Shown: positions 16,844-22,011, counted from the first letter of the stretch. The stretch is 64,000 bases of DNA from Nitrospirota bacterium (GCA_014874185.1 JACWAF010000029.1:1-64000); one strand, 5' to 3'. The notes: generated from the letters alone by a model not told the origin. Program-made: numbers and translations.

Positions 16844-16908
16844 AATCTTCTACCCCCTTGTTTTTTAAAGTGAGCCGTGCAGGATTCGAACCTGCGACCC
16901 GCTGATTA
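16844..16908 (-). repeat. Direct repeat: duplicated 3' half of tRNA-Lys (about 48 nt) plus about 17 nt of 3' flank. Distal att site of the islet.
   Basis: gtgagccgtgcaggattcgaacctgcgacccgctgattaagag is identical to 21939-21981. The flank ccccttgtttt..aaa is also shared. Confidence 0.85.
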
Positions 16909-17079
16909 AGAGACGCTTTATAGGGATTATGCAAGTGCTTGAAAATACCAGAAAAAGCTTAAAAAACAGGAGGTTTATAAGCTACAAATTTGAATGACGT
17001 ACAATGATTTCTAGCGAATTCTGATATTTTTTTTTCATGTTTTTTTCACAGTGCATATAAAAACTAACAGGAGTTTACT

Positions 17080-17371
17080 ATGGAAAAATTAATGAATATT
17101 GACGAGGTGGCGGAGATGCTGGGAGTAACAAAAGGTGCCATTTATGCCTGGGTCTATAAAAAAAAAGATTCCCCATATAAAGCTCACCAAGAGGCTCCTA
17201 AAGTTCAGGGAGAAGGATATAATGGACTGGCTTTCTCAAAAATCGGTCAGCGCCGATGCGCCGGCCGCGGGCAGAAGGAGCTGGCATTATACAAGGCCGT
17301 CTTCCGGCCTGTCTGATGACAACATCGAAAGGATCATCAGGAACGCCAAAGCGGAAGTTTTTAAAAAATGA
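17080..17371 (+). pseudogene. Excisionase/AlpA-like HTH DNA-binding protein, frameshifted in an A9 run (about 17155-17164)
   Basis: Frame 1 reads MEKLMNIDEVAEMLGVTKGAIYAWVYKKK. Frame 2 continues IPHIKLTKRLLKFREKDIMDWL.... Together they reconstruct a typical HTH_17/excisionase protein. Confidence 0.6.
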
Positions 17372-17514
17372 CGCCTTTGAGAATCGACGGGGCATTCGTG
17401 TGTCTCTGCGCCTTCTCTATAGAGACCGCCACAAGTCTGCTTCCGGGGGGTTGTTGTTAATTAAAGAAAAGGATATAATTAGACTAGTCTGACTAGTAAA
17501 GAGGTGAATTTCAT

Positions 17515-17766
17515 ATGAGGACTTGGCAATTGCAGGAAGCAAAAGCGCGTTTGAGTGAGGTGATAAAGCAAGCCTCGAAGGAGGGACCCCAGACCATTAC
17601 GATGCGCGGAGAACCCACCGCTGTTGTGCTTTCAAAGGGCGAATATGAACGGCTCAAGCATCCAAAAGGAAGTTTTGTGGATTTTATGCGGAAATCGCCT
17701 CTTTACGGAGTGGATATTGACCTGAAGCGGGAGCAGACATTGACCCGGGAATCTGATATTTCATGA
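17515..17766 (+). CDS. Type II antitoxin (Phd/YefM or VapB-like)
   Basis: MRTWQLQEAKARLSEVIKQASKEGPQTITMRGEPTAVVL. The gene overlaps a PIN toxin gene. Confidence 0.75.
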   Translation: MRTWQLQEAKARLSEVIKQASKEGPQTITMRGEPTAVVLSKGEYERLKHPKGSFVDFMRKSPLYGVDIDLKREQTLTRESDIS

Positions 17767-18182
17767 GCTACCTGCTTGATACCAATGTTGTTTCAGAAAC
17801 AATACGGCGTCATCAAAATAAGGCTGTGGTCGAGTGGCTTGAACAGGTTCCGGCCGAAGCGCTCTTCATAAGCGTTTTGACGCTGGGCGAAATCCGGAAG
17901 GGCGTTGAGGCGCTTACAGATAAAAAAAGAAGGGAAAAGTTGCGCCTTTGGCTGGAGCGCGAGCTCCCGGTCTGGTTCGAGGACCGGGTGCTCCCGGTTG
18001 ACCTTGCCGTGGCCGAACGATGGGGCAGACTGCTTGCCCAAGCTGGCCGTCCGGTCCCTACCATCGACAGTCTTCTTGCCGCCACAGCATTGCATTATGA
18101 ATTGCGGCTTGTGACCCGGAATGCAAGAGATTTCGATTATCCAGGGCTTGAAGTGGTTAATCCCTGGCAGAACGCGACTTGA
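17763..18182 (+). CDS. vapC: PIN-domain toxin VapC
   Basis: MSYLLDTNVVSE...TLGEIRKG...LVTRNARDF. The fold is PIN/VapC-like. The start overlaps the antitoxin stop. Confidence 0.8.
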   Translation: MSYLLDTNVVSETIRRHQNKAVVEWLEQVPAEALFISVLTLGEIRKGVEALTDKKRREKLRLWLERELPVWFEDRVLPVDLAVAERWGRLLAQAGRPVPTIDSLLAATALHYELRLVTRNARDFDYPGLEVVNPWQNAT

Positions 18183-18206
18183 ACGTATATTGGAGGTGAG
18201 CAATGC

Positions 18207-18543
18207 TATGGTTAAAGTTCTTGCCAAGGGGCAGATTGTCATCCCGAAAGAAATAAGAGAAAAGGCCGATATCCATGTTGGAGATGAAGTTGAACTGCAA
18301 ATGACATCGAAAGGCATCATGGTCCTTAGCAATAAATTGCAAAATGGCTCACCCGCCCATACAATTAAATTAAGGGAATTAAGTTCCACTAAGCGGTTAG
18401 TCAATAGTGACGCAAATTATGAACCCGAGAAAATCAGCAAACTCAATCATCCTTACGGACTGGGGAGCGGATTGCGAGAGTCTTGGCCAGAGTCCAGAGG
18501 CCGTTCTCTACGAATTGCTGCTCCTATCTCTTCTCTACGATAA
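18207..18543 (+). CDS. AbrB/MazE/SpoVT-type antitoxin-like DNA-binding protein (extent uncertain)
   Basis: MVKVLAKGQIVIPKEIREKADIHVGDEVELQMTSKGIMVL is a swapped-hairpin barrel motif. The tail of this ORF overlaps the 18407 ORF. Confidence 0.45.
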
Positions 18544-19813: not shown

Positions 19814-19868
19814 CAATATTGAACGGATCATCAGGAATGCTAAGGAGGAAGTCCTTAAAGTCAGATAG
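19790..19868 (+). pseudogene. Remnant C-terminus of a second excisionase-like gene (…SADNIERIIRNAKEEVLKVR*)
   Basis: It matches the C-terminus of the 17080 gene (…SDDNIERIIRNAKAEVFKK*) at both the DNA and protein level. Confidence 0.5.
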
Positions 19869-20029
19869 GGGTGACAACTTCAGGATACCCTTCACGTACT
19901 TAATGAAGCTCAAGTTTGTTTTGCGGGATTCCTGCCTTCCCTGCAGAAATAGCCTCATATGGCGTTATCCGTCCATATTATGTATAATCCAATTTATACT
20001 AATTATGATTATACTATGAGGAGAGCGGA

Positions 20030-21412
20030 ATGAGATTCGTTAACAGGAAAGAGGAGCTTGAAATCCTGGAGAGATTTTACAAGGAAGACAAATTTCATTT
20101 CATCCCAATCTACGGAAGAAGAAGGATCGGAAAAACGAGACTTGTCCAGGAGTTCATCAAGGACAGGCCTGCCATATACTTTCTTGCCGACAGCGTTGCC
20201 GAACACGAGCAGTTGAGAAATCTTGGCAGGGAAGTAGGCACCTTCTTCGAAGATATCCTCGCACAGCGGGGGTTTGACGACTGGCACCAGTTTTTCGACT
20301 ATCTGAAGAGGAAAATAAAGACAAGAACGATCCTTGTCATAGACGAGTTCCCTTACCTTGTAAATTCAAACAAGGGCATTTCCTCCATCTTCCAGAAAGG
20401 AATTGATGAGTATCTTAATGACACAAAGCTCTTTCTCATACTGATGGGGTCAAGCGTGGGGATGATGGAGAAAGAAGTGCTCTTCTACAAGGCCCCGCTT
20501 TACGGAAGAAGAACAGGGTCTCTGGAAATGAAAGAAATGGCGTTTGGCTGCCTAAAAGAGTTTTTTCCGAAGAAAGGTATGGATGACCTGGTCTCGATTT
20601 TCGGAGTAACGGGAACCATCCCGGCTTATCTTGAGAAACTCGACCCCGAAAAGGATATATTCCACAATATAGAAGAACAAATACTCAGCAAAGAGACGTT
20701 CCTTTATAATGAGGTGGAATACATCCTCCGGGAGGAACTGAGGGAACCGCGGAATTATTTTGTAATCCTCAGGTCCATAGCCCAGGGGAAGCGGAAGCTC
20801 TCCGAGATCATCAATGACACGGGGTTTGAAAAGAGCCTTCTTTCCAGATACCTGGAAATTCTCCGGAGCCTCAGGTTTGTGGAAAAGGAAGTGCCGGTCA
20901 CCGAGAAATATCCCGAAAAGAGCAAGCTCGGGCTCTACAGAATTCATGACCGGTTCTTTGAATTCTGGTTCAAATATGTTTTCCCGAACAGGAGCAAACT
21001 TGAGATAGGAAAAGGCACGGAAGTGCTACGGCTGATAAAGGAGACCTTCGACCAGCATCTTTCGTTTGCATTCGAGGATATTTGCAGGCAGCACTGCCTT
21101 GAACTCATGAGGGAGGGCAGGATCCGGTTTTCCTCGATTGGCAGGTGGTGGCAGAAGAACGAGGAGATAGATATAGTCGCACTCGACGAGGAGAACAAAG
21201 AGATATATTTTGGCGAGGCCAAGTGGAGCAGGAAGCCTGTGGGAATTGACATCCTGGACGATCTGAAGAGGAAAGCGGCACTCGTGGACTGGAACAAGGG
21301 GAAACGGAAAGAGCATTTCATGCTCTTTTCCAAGTCCGGTTTTACGGAAGCCGTGCTTAAAACCGCTTCCAAAGAAGATGTCATCCTGGTTAAAGGCGAG
21401 GCGGTTTTATAG
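20030..21412 (+). CDS. AAA+ ATPase of the Arch_ATPase/DUF234 family
   Basis: FVNRKEELEILERF...IYGRRRIGKTRLV (P-loop)...VIDEFPYL. The C-terminal DUF234-like region reads YFGEAKWS. Confidence 0.75.
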   Translation: MRFVNRKEELEILERFYKEDKFHFIPIYGRRRIGKTRLVQEFIKDRPAIYFLADSVAEHEQLRNLGREVGTFFEDILAQRGFDDWHQFFDYLKRKIKTRTILVIDEFPYLVNSNKGISSIFQKGIDEYLNDTKLFLILMGSSVGMMEKEVLFYKAPLYGRRTGSLEMKEMAFGCLKEFFPKKGMDDLVSIFGVTGTIPAYLEKLDPEKDIFHNIEEQILSKETFLYNEVEYILREELREPRNYFVILRSIAQGKRKLSEIINDTGFEKSLLSRYLEILRSLRFVEKEVPVTEKYPEKSKLGLYRIHDRFFEFWFKYVFPNRSKLEIGKGTEVLRLIKETFDQHLSFAFEDICRQHCLELMREGRIRFSSIGRWWQKNEEIDIVALDEENKEIYFGEAKWSRKPVGIDILDDLKRKAALVDWNKGKRKEHFMLFSKSGFTEAVLKTASKEDVILVKGEAVL

Positions 21413-21423
21413 ATAAGGGAAAA

Positions 21424-21813
21424 TTGATCATGGCCTGGAAAAAGAAAATAGACAGCATATCACCCGAGCTTGCTCATGAATTGGGCGAGATGGTGCTTGA
21501 TGAGCTTGGCCCGGCATTTCGCGAGTTGTCCCGGAAATTTAACCTGAATATAGCAGACTTGTTTCAATTTACTCCGGTGTCGCAGCAATGTTCGGGGAAA
21601 CGACAAAAGCTTGGGCTCGACGTAAAGGAAGCGGCAAAGCAATCCGGTGTGCCGCAATACAGGATTAAGGCAATCGAGGAGGGCAGTTTTTTATATATTA
21701 CTCCTGAAGCGCTACGCACATATCTTTGTTTTTTGGGGCTCGAAAAATGGTACCGGGACTGGGCCCTTAAAAATAAAAAGCTTGTGAAAGCCAAAGGACT
21801 GCCCATTCTGTAA
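21424..21813 (+). CDS. XRE-family helix-turn-helix protein
   Basis: KLGLDVKEAAKQSGVPQYRIKAIEEGSF. Confidence 0.5.
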   Translation: MIMAWKKKIDSISPELAHELGEMVLDELGPAFRELSRKFNLNIADLFQFTPVSQQCSGKRQKLGLDVKEAAKQSGVPQYRIKAIEEGSFLYITPEALRTYLCFLGLEKWYRDWALKNKKLVKAKGLPIL

Positions 21814-21938
21814 TTACCCGCCTGTCTAATAAATTTGTACGGATTTTCACGTTTTCTTCACAGCAGGTAATAGTCAGCGGGTCAAAAAAAGAAAAAGGGG
21901 AAGACATTAAACCGCCTAACCCCTTGTTTTAATTAAAG

Positions 21939-22011
21939 TGAGCCGTGCAGGATTCGAACCTGCGACCCGCTGATTAAGAGTCAGCTGCTCTACCAACTGA
22001 GCTAACGGCCC
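21939..22011 (-). tRNA. tRNA-Lys (anticodon CUU), 73 nt, CCA not encoded
   Basis: Cloverleaf read by hand: acceptor GGGCCGT/ACGGCTC, D arm GCTC..GAGC, anticodon stem GCTGA/TCAGC with loop CTCTTAA, T arm GCAGG-TTCGAAT-CCTGC. Confidence 0.85.

Follow-up and report, generated by a model that had tools for sequence, protein, structure and literature searches.

The 64,000-nucleotide stretch of Nitrospirota bacterium DNA analysed here (the window; GCA_014874185.1, JACWAF010000029.1:1-64000) contains an islet of 5,025 bp (16913-21937) that is bounded by two copies of the 3' end of a tRNA-Lys(CTT) gene. The islet is likely to be a remnant, fixed and decayed, of at least one small, site-specific integrative element that used this tRNA gene as its target and has lost its integrase. 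Its GC content of 46.7%, compared to 54.5% for the window, falls in the lowest 0.3% of all 5-kb stretches of the window, in agreement with a preliminary description of the region as AT-richer. The same description had proposed an islet bounded by attachment (att) sites whose integrase has been lost. This proposal is supported by the geometry of the locus, the position of the repeat boundary at the anticodon loop, two excisionase relics and the existence of integrase-bearing relatives.

The tRNA-Lys gene and its displaced 3' fragment

The only tRNA gene of the window is tRNA-Lys(CTT), located on the minus strand at 21938-22011 (ARAGORN; Rfam RF00005, 73.6 bits). A repeat search reveals an exact direct repeat of 48 nt, in which 16865-16912 and 21933-21980 are identical at 48 of 48 positions. 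The repeat comprises the 3'-terminal 43 nt of the tRNA and 5 nt of its downstream flank; 16865-16912 represents the distal att core, while the proximal att core (21938-21980) is part of the intact gene. The tRNA portion of the displaced copy (16870-16912, minus strand) has the same orientation as the tRNA-Lys gene and is located downstream of its 3' end. Beyond the exact repeat and a 2-nt indel, another 22 nt can be aligned at 82% identity (16843-16864 and 21909-21930). Repeat and flank together show approximately 66 matches in 72 aligned columns, counted by hand. The 65-bp repeat reported earlier at 16844-16908 was right in substance, while the exact repeat is 48 bp long and its right edge lies at 16912.

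At 16.8 kb, no tRNA gene is called by ARAGORN or by Rfam (E up to 1). The left copy is therefore a fragment and not a second bona fide tRNA gene, a possibility that had been named as a potential refutation of the islet. A 31-nt core, searched with up to 3 mismatches, is found in only two places in the 64 kb, and 0 of 100 shuffled sequences contained a match; the same two copies are recovered with an 18-nt sub-core. Within 3 mismatches, the window contains no third or degenerate att copy. A larger island that takes in the adjacent gas vesicle (gvp) cluster was rejected on the same grounds.

The identity between the two copies ends where the anticodon stem meets the anticodon loop, just before the first loop base (sense strand ...GCTGA/CTCTTAATCAGC..., with the slash at the boundary). 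The anticodon loop is a recognised sublocation for integrases in tRNA genes (10.1101/2020.11.02.365908).

At the other end of the repeat, both copies are followed on the minus strand by a terminator-like hairpin and a U-run, which accounts for the weaker similarity of the flanks beyond the repeat. Just downstream of the displaced fragment, RNA folding yields the hairpin AAGGGGGUAG...CUGCCCCUU followed by UUCGCUUUU (16825-16869, -16.7 kcal/mol), presumably the original host terminator of tRNA-Lys. The intact tRNA is followed by AAGGGG...CCCCUU and UUUCUUUUUUU (21889-21937, -13.9 kcal/mol). According to the standard integration model, this second hairpin would have been supplied by the element. 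Together with the tRNA, 21889-21937 is 88% similar to the tRNA-Lys flanks of other metagenomic loci (L161, L155, L070 and others), and the AAGGGG..CCCCTT motif is also present downstream of many tRNA-Lys genes in other organisms.

Logan contigs from the runs SRR12217121, SRR12217122 and SRR12217123 match the window at 100% identity, and this extends to a frameshift within nine consecutive adenines (A9) that is described below. The contigs span 12232-16894, 16883-19331, 18210-21962 and 21977-24822. The sequence itself is confirmed by them, but neither the order of the joins nor excision can be read from them, because k-mer unitigs necessarily stop inside repeats. This bears on the idea that the islet is an assembly artefact, in which a 5-kb circle or a segment of another strain was joined via the 48-bp repeat. 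All Logan unitigs end within the repeats, and the graph would fit a 'gvp - tRNA - s54' chromosome (s54, sigma-54 activator) plus a 5-kb circle. However, the repeat measures only 48 bp, whereas the reads are assumed to be longer and the 82.7-kb contig is assumed to have been assembled through both copies. The sequences just outside of the copies differ (82% identity and an indel), which disambiguates the joins, and the same sequences recur in three runs. In addition, a 5-kb circle lacking any replication or integration gene is implausible. Overall, we consider an artefact extremely unlikely.

Excisionase relics and integrase-bearing relatives

The ORFs of the islet were compared with Pfam, NCBIfam and PADLOC, and PHROG was also used. 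All of its genes, from the first excisionase gene (xis1) to an XRE-like gene at the far end, are encoded on the plus strand. The islet begins with the distal arm (P arm, 16913-17079), which is followed by xis1 (17080-17371), an HTH_17/AlpA-like gene of the excisionase family. xis1 is a frameshifted pseudogene that consists of two overlapping ORFs (17080-17316 and 17135-17371) and is broken in the A9 run at 17158-17166. Once the frame is repaired, the 96-aa product matches HTH_17 with 52.9 bits (cut-off 27) and TIGR01764 'excise' with 40.3 bits (cut-off 28.8). L187, an independent Logan assembly of a different run, contains the identical frameshift, which is therefore probably real and not a sequencing error. 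The slippage-prone A9 run could in principle switch xis1 on and off.

A second excisionase is represented by a relic (xis2, 19785-19868, plus strand) comprising its last ~27 codons, recognised by DNA and translation matches to xis1. The DNA identity between 19789-19859 and 17295-17365 is 79% over 71 nt. The relic translates to TRPPLGLSADNIERIIRNAKEEVLKVR followed by a stop codon and aligns with the C-termini of xis1 and of the excisionases from two metagenomic tRNA-Lys loci, L130 and L173. The C-terminal tail is unusual, reading ...DNIERIIRNAKAEV in the window compared to YIDRIVEKAKKEV and YIDRLIEKAKKEA in the L130 and L173 proteins. The motif ..(D/Y)I(E/D)R(I/L)(I/V)..AK.E is common to xis1 and both of these excisionases, and the xis2 relic possesses the tail as well. 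Both the frameshifted excisionase-like gene and the C-terminal remnant of the preliminary description are thus substantiated.

As had been noted before, an integrase is missing. None of the islet ORFs gives a Phage_integrase Pfam match that would indicate a tyrosine integrase, and a tblastn search of the 64 kb with six integrases from other tRNA-Lys elements has a best E of 0.49. Integrase relics were found neither in the non-coding gaps (including 17372-17514 and 19869-20029) nor elsewhere in the window. Pfam matches of the relaxase or type IV secretion system (T4SS) type are absent among the islet ORFs. A prophage was considered and rejected, with the excisionase being the sole PHROG match.

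The 43-nt tRNA part of the repeat was searched in one viral and one metagenome collection, which provided a sample of at least 121 tRNA-Lys loci (L066-L186). Among the loci listed, 27 of 121, or about a fifth, contain a displaced partial copy that ends at the same base of the anticodon loop and diverges thereafter. P4-like integrases adjoin the fragment in L092, L119 and L184, a 328-aa integrase is encoded in the 11.3-kb island of L085, and the 6.2-kb island of L147 contains a truncated integrase. L085 also encodes a 384-aa ORF that starts with a P-loop NTPase motif and appears inovirus Zot-like by eye only. In L070 and L154, the intact tRNA is accompanied by the flank that follows the fragment in L092, L119 and L184; these two groups look like the empty and the occupied site of one lineage elsewhere. 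With 27 fragments sharing the same boundary and several integrase types, tRNA-Lys(CTT) is a busy docking site in these environments, used by several element families.

Two loci are of particular relevance for the origin of the islet. In L130 (Ga0116123_1002209), the stop codon of the excisionase gene overlaps the beginning of an integrase gene (395 aa; Phage_integrase, 115 bits), which reads into the same tRNA and ends ~95 nt before the tRNA 3' end. The repaired xis1 product is 41% identical to the L130 excisionase over its full length (97 aa; 3e-18, tblastn), with a range of 38-41% across L130 and L173. The L173 contig contains a displaced fragment with the same att boundary as the window, followed ~4.7 kb later by an excisionase gene, a frameshift-split integrase and, where the contig ends, the beginning of the tRNA. 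Its cargo comprises a Fic/DOC protein and a PIN toxin.

The similarity extends into the distal arm. The region 16870-16949 matches L173 (83%), L114 (85%) and L110 (79%) in blastn searches and continues ~37 nt past the core; inside the islet, homology to the arms of these three elements covers the first ~37 nt (16913-16949). The motif GCAAGTGCTTGAAAATACC (16930-16948) is seen in all four elements at a distance of 63-73 nt to the att core start, with a single occurrence in the window. It may serve to bind the integrase or belong to the terminator. In its extended form (GC)AAGTGCTTGAAAA(TACC), the motif is found at 16930-16948 in the window and at positions 3508, 535 and 261 in L173, L110 and L114, respectively. 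Eight other loci contain related AAGTGCTTGAAAA or AAGTCCTTGAAAA strings at a distance of 18-29 nt downstream from the tRNA 3' end. Of 17 matches in 696 kb, 12 are no more than 75 nt away from an att copy, all of them on one strand.

The orthologous excisionases with an integrase downstream, together with the arm shared with L173, argue that the islet descends from a family of very small elements that combine an excisionase-integrase operon with toxin-type cargo. Among the 121 listed loci, tblastn detects relatives of the islet proteins for the excisionases only. The listed loci share no islet DNA beyond the att region, and the flanks of the window have no synteny with them.

The repeat, its boundary, the gene content, the missing integrase and the homology to integrase-bearing elements are observations. 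The direction of events is inferred from them, while any present function of the cargo genes would follow from family membership. The ancestor would have been a member of a group of elements of roughly 5 kb found at the same tRNA, equipped with an excisionase-integrase operon and toxin-type cargo, and a tyrosine integrase would have recombined it into the anticodon loop of tRNA-Lys(CTT). The tRNA gene at 21938-22011 would have been rebuilt from host 5' DNA and element 3' DNA, while the host's own tRNA 3' part and its terminator were pushed 5 kb away, to 16825-16912. The integrase would have been cleanly deleted, one excisionase frameshifted and the other cut to its last ~27 codons. The interior may have become a mosaic of independently exchanged cassettes: Phd/PIN, AbrB/MazE, orf464, DUF234 and XRE-like. 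At least three deletions or replacements would be needed, affecting the integrase after xis1, the 5' two-thirds of xis2 and the integrase after xis2.

Divergence between the two excisionase relics amounts to 21%, compared to none in 48 positions for the att copies, so the relics would have diverged before the last integration. This suggests that they probably derive from two related ancestral elements and not from a recent internal duplication. Arrays of elements in tandem at a single tDNA have been described (PMC4383910), and the islet contains no internal att copy.

Several points weigh against a decayed remnant of this family. xis1 adjoins the displaced fragment, whereas the excisionase-integrase pair of L130 and L173 adjoins the intact tRNA, so that several deletions or a tandem array must be assumed. 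The arm at the intact tRNA looks like a tRNA-Lys terminator of the ordinary type, unlike the L130/L173 arm, so that the right-hand module may differ in origin. No close relative with an empty site was found, and the insertion is deduced from structure, not from comparison. Finally, the short-read unitigs all break inside the repeat, and the joins to the flanks are not independently confirmed.

Judging from its gene content, the islet cannot excise by itself. It would be mobile only through a related integrase acting in trans on the identical att cores, or it could be lost by homologous recombination between the 48-bp repeats. The first of these routes raises the alternative of a working non-autonomous element, which is excised and integrated in trans by an L130/L173-type integrase elsewhere in the genome or community. 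The att cores are identical even though the displaced copy is free of the constraint on a tRNA, and the distal-arm motif common to L173, L110 and L114 has been kept. Integrases at this site are often damaged (frameshifted in L173, truncated in L147), which makes helper dependence plausible, and a comparable logic is documented for cis-mobilizable elements (CIMEs; PMC6323972). However, the excisionase is frameshifted in all assemblies, the tRNA-proximal arm is unlike that of L130 and L173, the listed tRNA-Lys loci have only the att region and excisionase proteins in common with the islet, and no helper integrase is encoded in the 64 kb. We therefore regard a working element as unlikely and favour the decayed remnant.

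Cargo and neighbouring genes

The remaining islet genes constitute a heterogeneous cargo. An antitoxin of the Phd/YefM family (17515-17766, plus strand; PF02604 5e-15, TIGR01552 7e-16) lies upstream of a PIN-domain, VapC-type toxin (17763-18182, plus strand; PF01850 5e-18), with a 4-nt overlap between the two genes (17763-17766). The PF02604 and PF01850 matches exceed their cut-offs, while the VapC NCBIfam matches to the PIN toxin are weak and remain below theirs. By sequence, the Phd/YefM and PIN genes form a pair with the arrangement of a type II toxin-antitoxin (TA) system. The VapBC module described previously is correct with respect to the VapC-type toxin, but its antitoxin belongs to the Phd/YefM family.

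The next gene, coding for an AbrB/MazE-type DNA-binding protein (18208-18543, plus strand; PF04014 7e-10, TIGR01439 1.5e-11), has no cognate toxin, and its 3' end overlaps the following ORF, orf464, by 125 nt. It is therefore probably an orphan antitoxin relic. A role as conserved partner of orf464 was rejected, since two homologous orf464 loci lack an AbrB/MazE gene upstream.

The largest ORF of the islet, orf464 (18419-19813, plus strand, 464 aa), was left out of the earlier gene list, which otherwise is confirmed. It has no match in Pfam, NCBIfam, PADLOC or PHROG. Its homologues form 26 clusters, and a profile search expands these to ~201 clusters at 50% identity; orf464 is a full-length member of a small uncharacterised protein family. 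The AlphaFold2 (AF2) model has a pLDDT of 82 and a pTM of 0.85, with no fold match in PDB or BFVD.

Downstream of the xis2 relic, a promoter-like region and the gene for a DUF234/ATPase_2 AAA ATPase occupy 19960-21412 on the plus strand (ORF 20030-21412; PF03008 1e-28, PF01637 1e-26). A search for defence systems, as proposed earlier, identifies this ATPase as a candidate: it matches the PADLOC model PDC-S27 (PDLC04984) over its full length (3.2e-50, residues 2-444 of 460). As a candidate, PDC-S27 was nominated by 'guilt-by-embedding', and most candidates of this type still await validation (PMC12988326). 'Defence patch' is a reasonable label for the islet, not a demonstrated function.

Homologues of the DUF234 ATPase with 88-92% amino acid identity are found on contigs labelled Nitrospirae, Syntrophorhabdales and Deltaproteobacteria. 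In one contig (L188, 3506-4958), 88% nucleotide identity covers exactly 19960-21411, corresponding to the promoter-like stretch and the ORF, and nothing else; there, the gene adjoins Wadjet (JetA/JetB-like) genes and a PemK toxin. The sequence comparison clearly points to a single-gene cassette that was recently exchanged between hosts. The high identity across taxa contrasts with at most 56% for the homologues of the neighbouring sigma-54 activator and at most 77% for those of orf229, the gene on the opposite side of the islet. The XRE-like helix-turn-helix (HTH) gene that follows (21424-21813, plus strand) gives weak HTH matches, all below curated cut-offs (HTH_19 1e-5, HTH_25 1e-4, HTH_3 9e-4). 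It was rejected as a part of the cassette, since L188 shares the promoter and ORF only. The AbrB/MazE-like, DUF234 and XRE genes of the preliminary description are all present in the Pfam, NCBIfam and PADLOC searches.

The behaviour of the DUF234 gene as a free single-gene cassette is also compatible with a history that involves no integration. Here, a hotspot downstream of tRNA-Lys would gather defence and TA cassettes, and the tRNA fragment would result from local duplication or illegitimate recombination. Both orf464 and the DUF234 ATPase have homologues in defence-rich patches with no tRNA within the sequence retrieved, and in L064 a restriction-modification system is located just upstream of the sigma-54 activator. 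In this case, however, the duplication boundary would have to coincide to the base with the integrase crossover boundary of 27 independent listed loci. The arm on the fragment side is homologous to the arms of integrase-bearing elements, and the islet contains two excisionase relics orthologous to those of excisionase-integrase operons. A hotspot of this type is thus very unlikely to account for the islet.

A broader scenario assumes community-wide 'mini-islands' of ~5 kb, which dock at the anticodon loop of tRNA-Lys(CTT), are moved in trans by a few integrase-bearing members and shuttle single-gene defence or toxin cassettes among distant anaerobes. The DUF234/PDC-S27 gene would then be one of these cassettes, and orf464 would be a new defence or addiction protein. 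We consider this scenario quite improbable and retain the decayed, integrase-less remnant as the preferred interpretation.

The islet separates the gvp cluster from the sigma-54 activator, which had been suggested as a regulator of the gas vesicle genes. Between 7060 and 13040 on the plus strand, the gvp cluster encodes an AAA_5 ATPase (7060-7977), an ArsA-type ATPase (8865-9824), a CDC48-like double AAA ATPase (9837-11978) and a GvpL/F-DnaJ fusion (11982-13040). The last gene of the cluster, orf229 (16083-16772, plus strand, 229 aa), has no Pfam or NCBIfam match. Its homologues (loci L003-L054, 39-77% identity) are found at the end of gvp clusters on contigs labelled Nitrospirota, Chloroflexota, Bacteroidota, Verrucomicrobiota and Planctomycetota, as well as one Heimdallarchaeote. 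Based on this distribution, orf229 looks like a widespread accessory gene of gas vesicles that has no name yet, and the gvp cluster itself seems to have spread horizontally.

On the other side, loci with homologues of the sigma-54 activator retain the order of sigma-54 activator, methylthioadenosine (MTA) phosphorylase-like gene, TldD and LpxC, with mgsA or a restriction-modification system upstream and no tRNA. In L061 and L064, the activator heads a block that continues from LpxC up to RmuC and abuts mgsA, with neither a tRNA nor gvp genes present. The system just upstream of the activator in L064, at the same junction, is of the EcoRII type and includes Vsr. In the window, the block of mgsA, UDP-glucose (UDPG) dehydrogenase, radical SAM and RNase E/G genes is found at 35.8-45.7 kb, inverted and 13 kb off; the window regions compared with L061 and L064 were 22233-31840 and 35780-45780. 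This displacement and inversion place a rearrangement breakpoint at the junction of tRNA-Lys and the sigma-54 activator. Of 52 gvp loci from other genomes, only one (L053) contains a similar activator nearby, with 27% identity and at a distance of ~3.5 kb from the orf229 homologue. The conserved block without gvp genes and the single distant counterpart lend no support to a gvp regulator. By gene order, the sigma-54 activator belongs to the core neighbourhood, and its adjacency to the gvp cluster would stem from rearrangement and insertion, providing no regulatory evidence.

Neither flank leads to an empty site. On the left, the 52 orf229 loci span many phyla, but the right-flank genes of the window are found in none of them, and the 15 loci closest to the window, scanned for tRNAs, contain no tRNA-Lys. 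On the right, a metagenome scan with the sigma-54 activator found nothing. The two flanks occur together in none of the 52 gvp loci, 5 sigma-54 activator loci and 121 listed tRNA-Lys loci. The closest relatives at the flanks have 50-77% protein identity and are rearranged; none proved close enough for the comparison with an uninterrupted junction that had been proposed.

Comparison with known elements

Integrase-less island remnants at tRNA genes are common. In this respect the islet is an ordinary kind of genomic island: decayed, mosaic and devoid of an integrase. Its modest value lies in how docking sites turn into patchworks of TA and candidate defence genes after integrase loss, and it singles out tRNA-Lys(CTT) as a place where elements dock often in uncultured bacteria of sediment and groundwater. 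It also draws attention to the orf464 family, predicted to be well folded, which may deserve a test for defence or toxicity. For the neighbouring sigma-54 activator, the suggestion of a dedicated role in gas vesicle regulation is removed.

Among the metagenomic elements, L130 and L173 have the same att boundary as the islet and encode an excisionase orthologue bearing the C-terminal motif. L173 additionally resembles it in the distal arm, in size (~4.7 kb) and in toxin-type cargo (PIN/Fic). Major differences concern the arrangement: in L130 and L173, the excisionase gene is immediately followed by the integrase gene, next to the intact tRNA. In the islet, the integrase is absent, the excisionase lies at the other end, a second excisionase relic is present internally and the cargo is unrelated.

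The signature used by Islander to identify tRNA islands consists of an intact tDNA and a displaced 3' fragment in the same orientation (PMC4383910). The islet agrees with these islands in geometry, orientation, an identity block reaching from the anticodon loop as far as the 3' end, and foreign composition. It differs by the lack of the defining integrase; Islander filters out such islets by design (PMC4383910).

CIMEs are att-flanked derivatives of ICEs (integrative and conjugative elements) or IMEs (integrative and mobilizable elements) lacking the genes for integration and transfer (PMC6323972). The islet likewise has an att core at both ends (48 bp, identical) and no integrase or transfer gene, in addition to its excisionase relics. 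With respect to the att sites, the cores are identical and the distal arm motif is kept, while neither L130 nor L173 has an equivalent of the proximal arm. The definition of CIMEs comes from Firmicutes and refers to conjugative ICEs, whereas the islet has no visible link to conjugation, its excisionase gene is a pseudogene, and its host is apparently an uncultured, Nitrospirota-like organism (best gvp relative 77%). Judged by sequence and gene content, CIME-like is the best-fitting named category for the islet.

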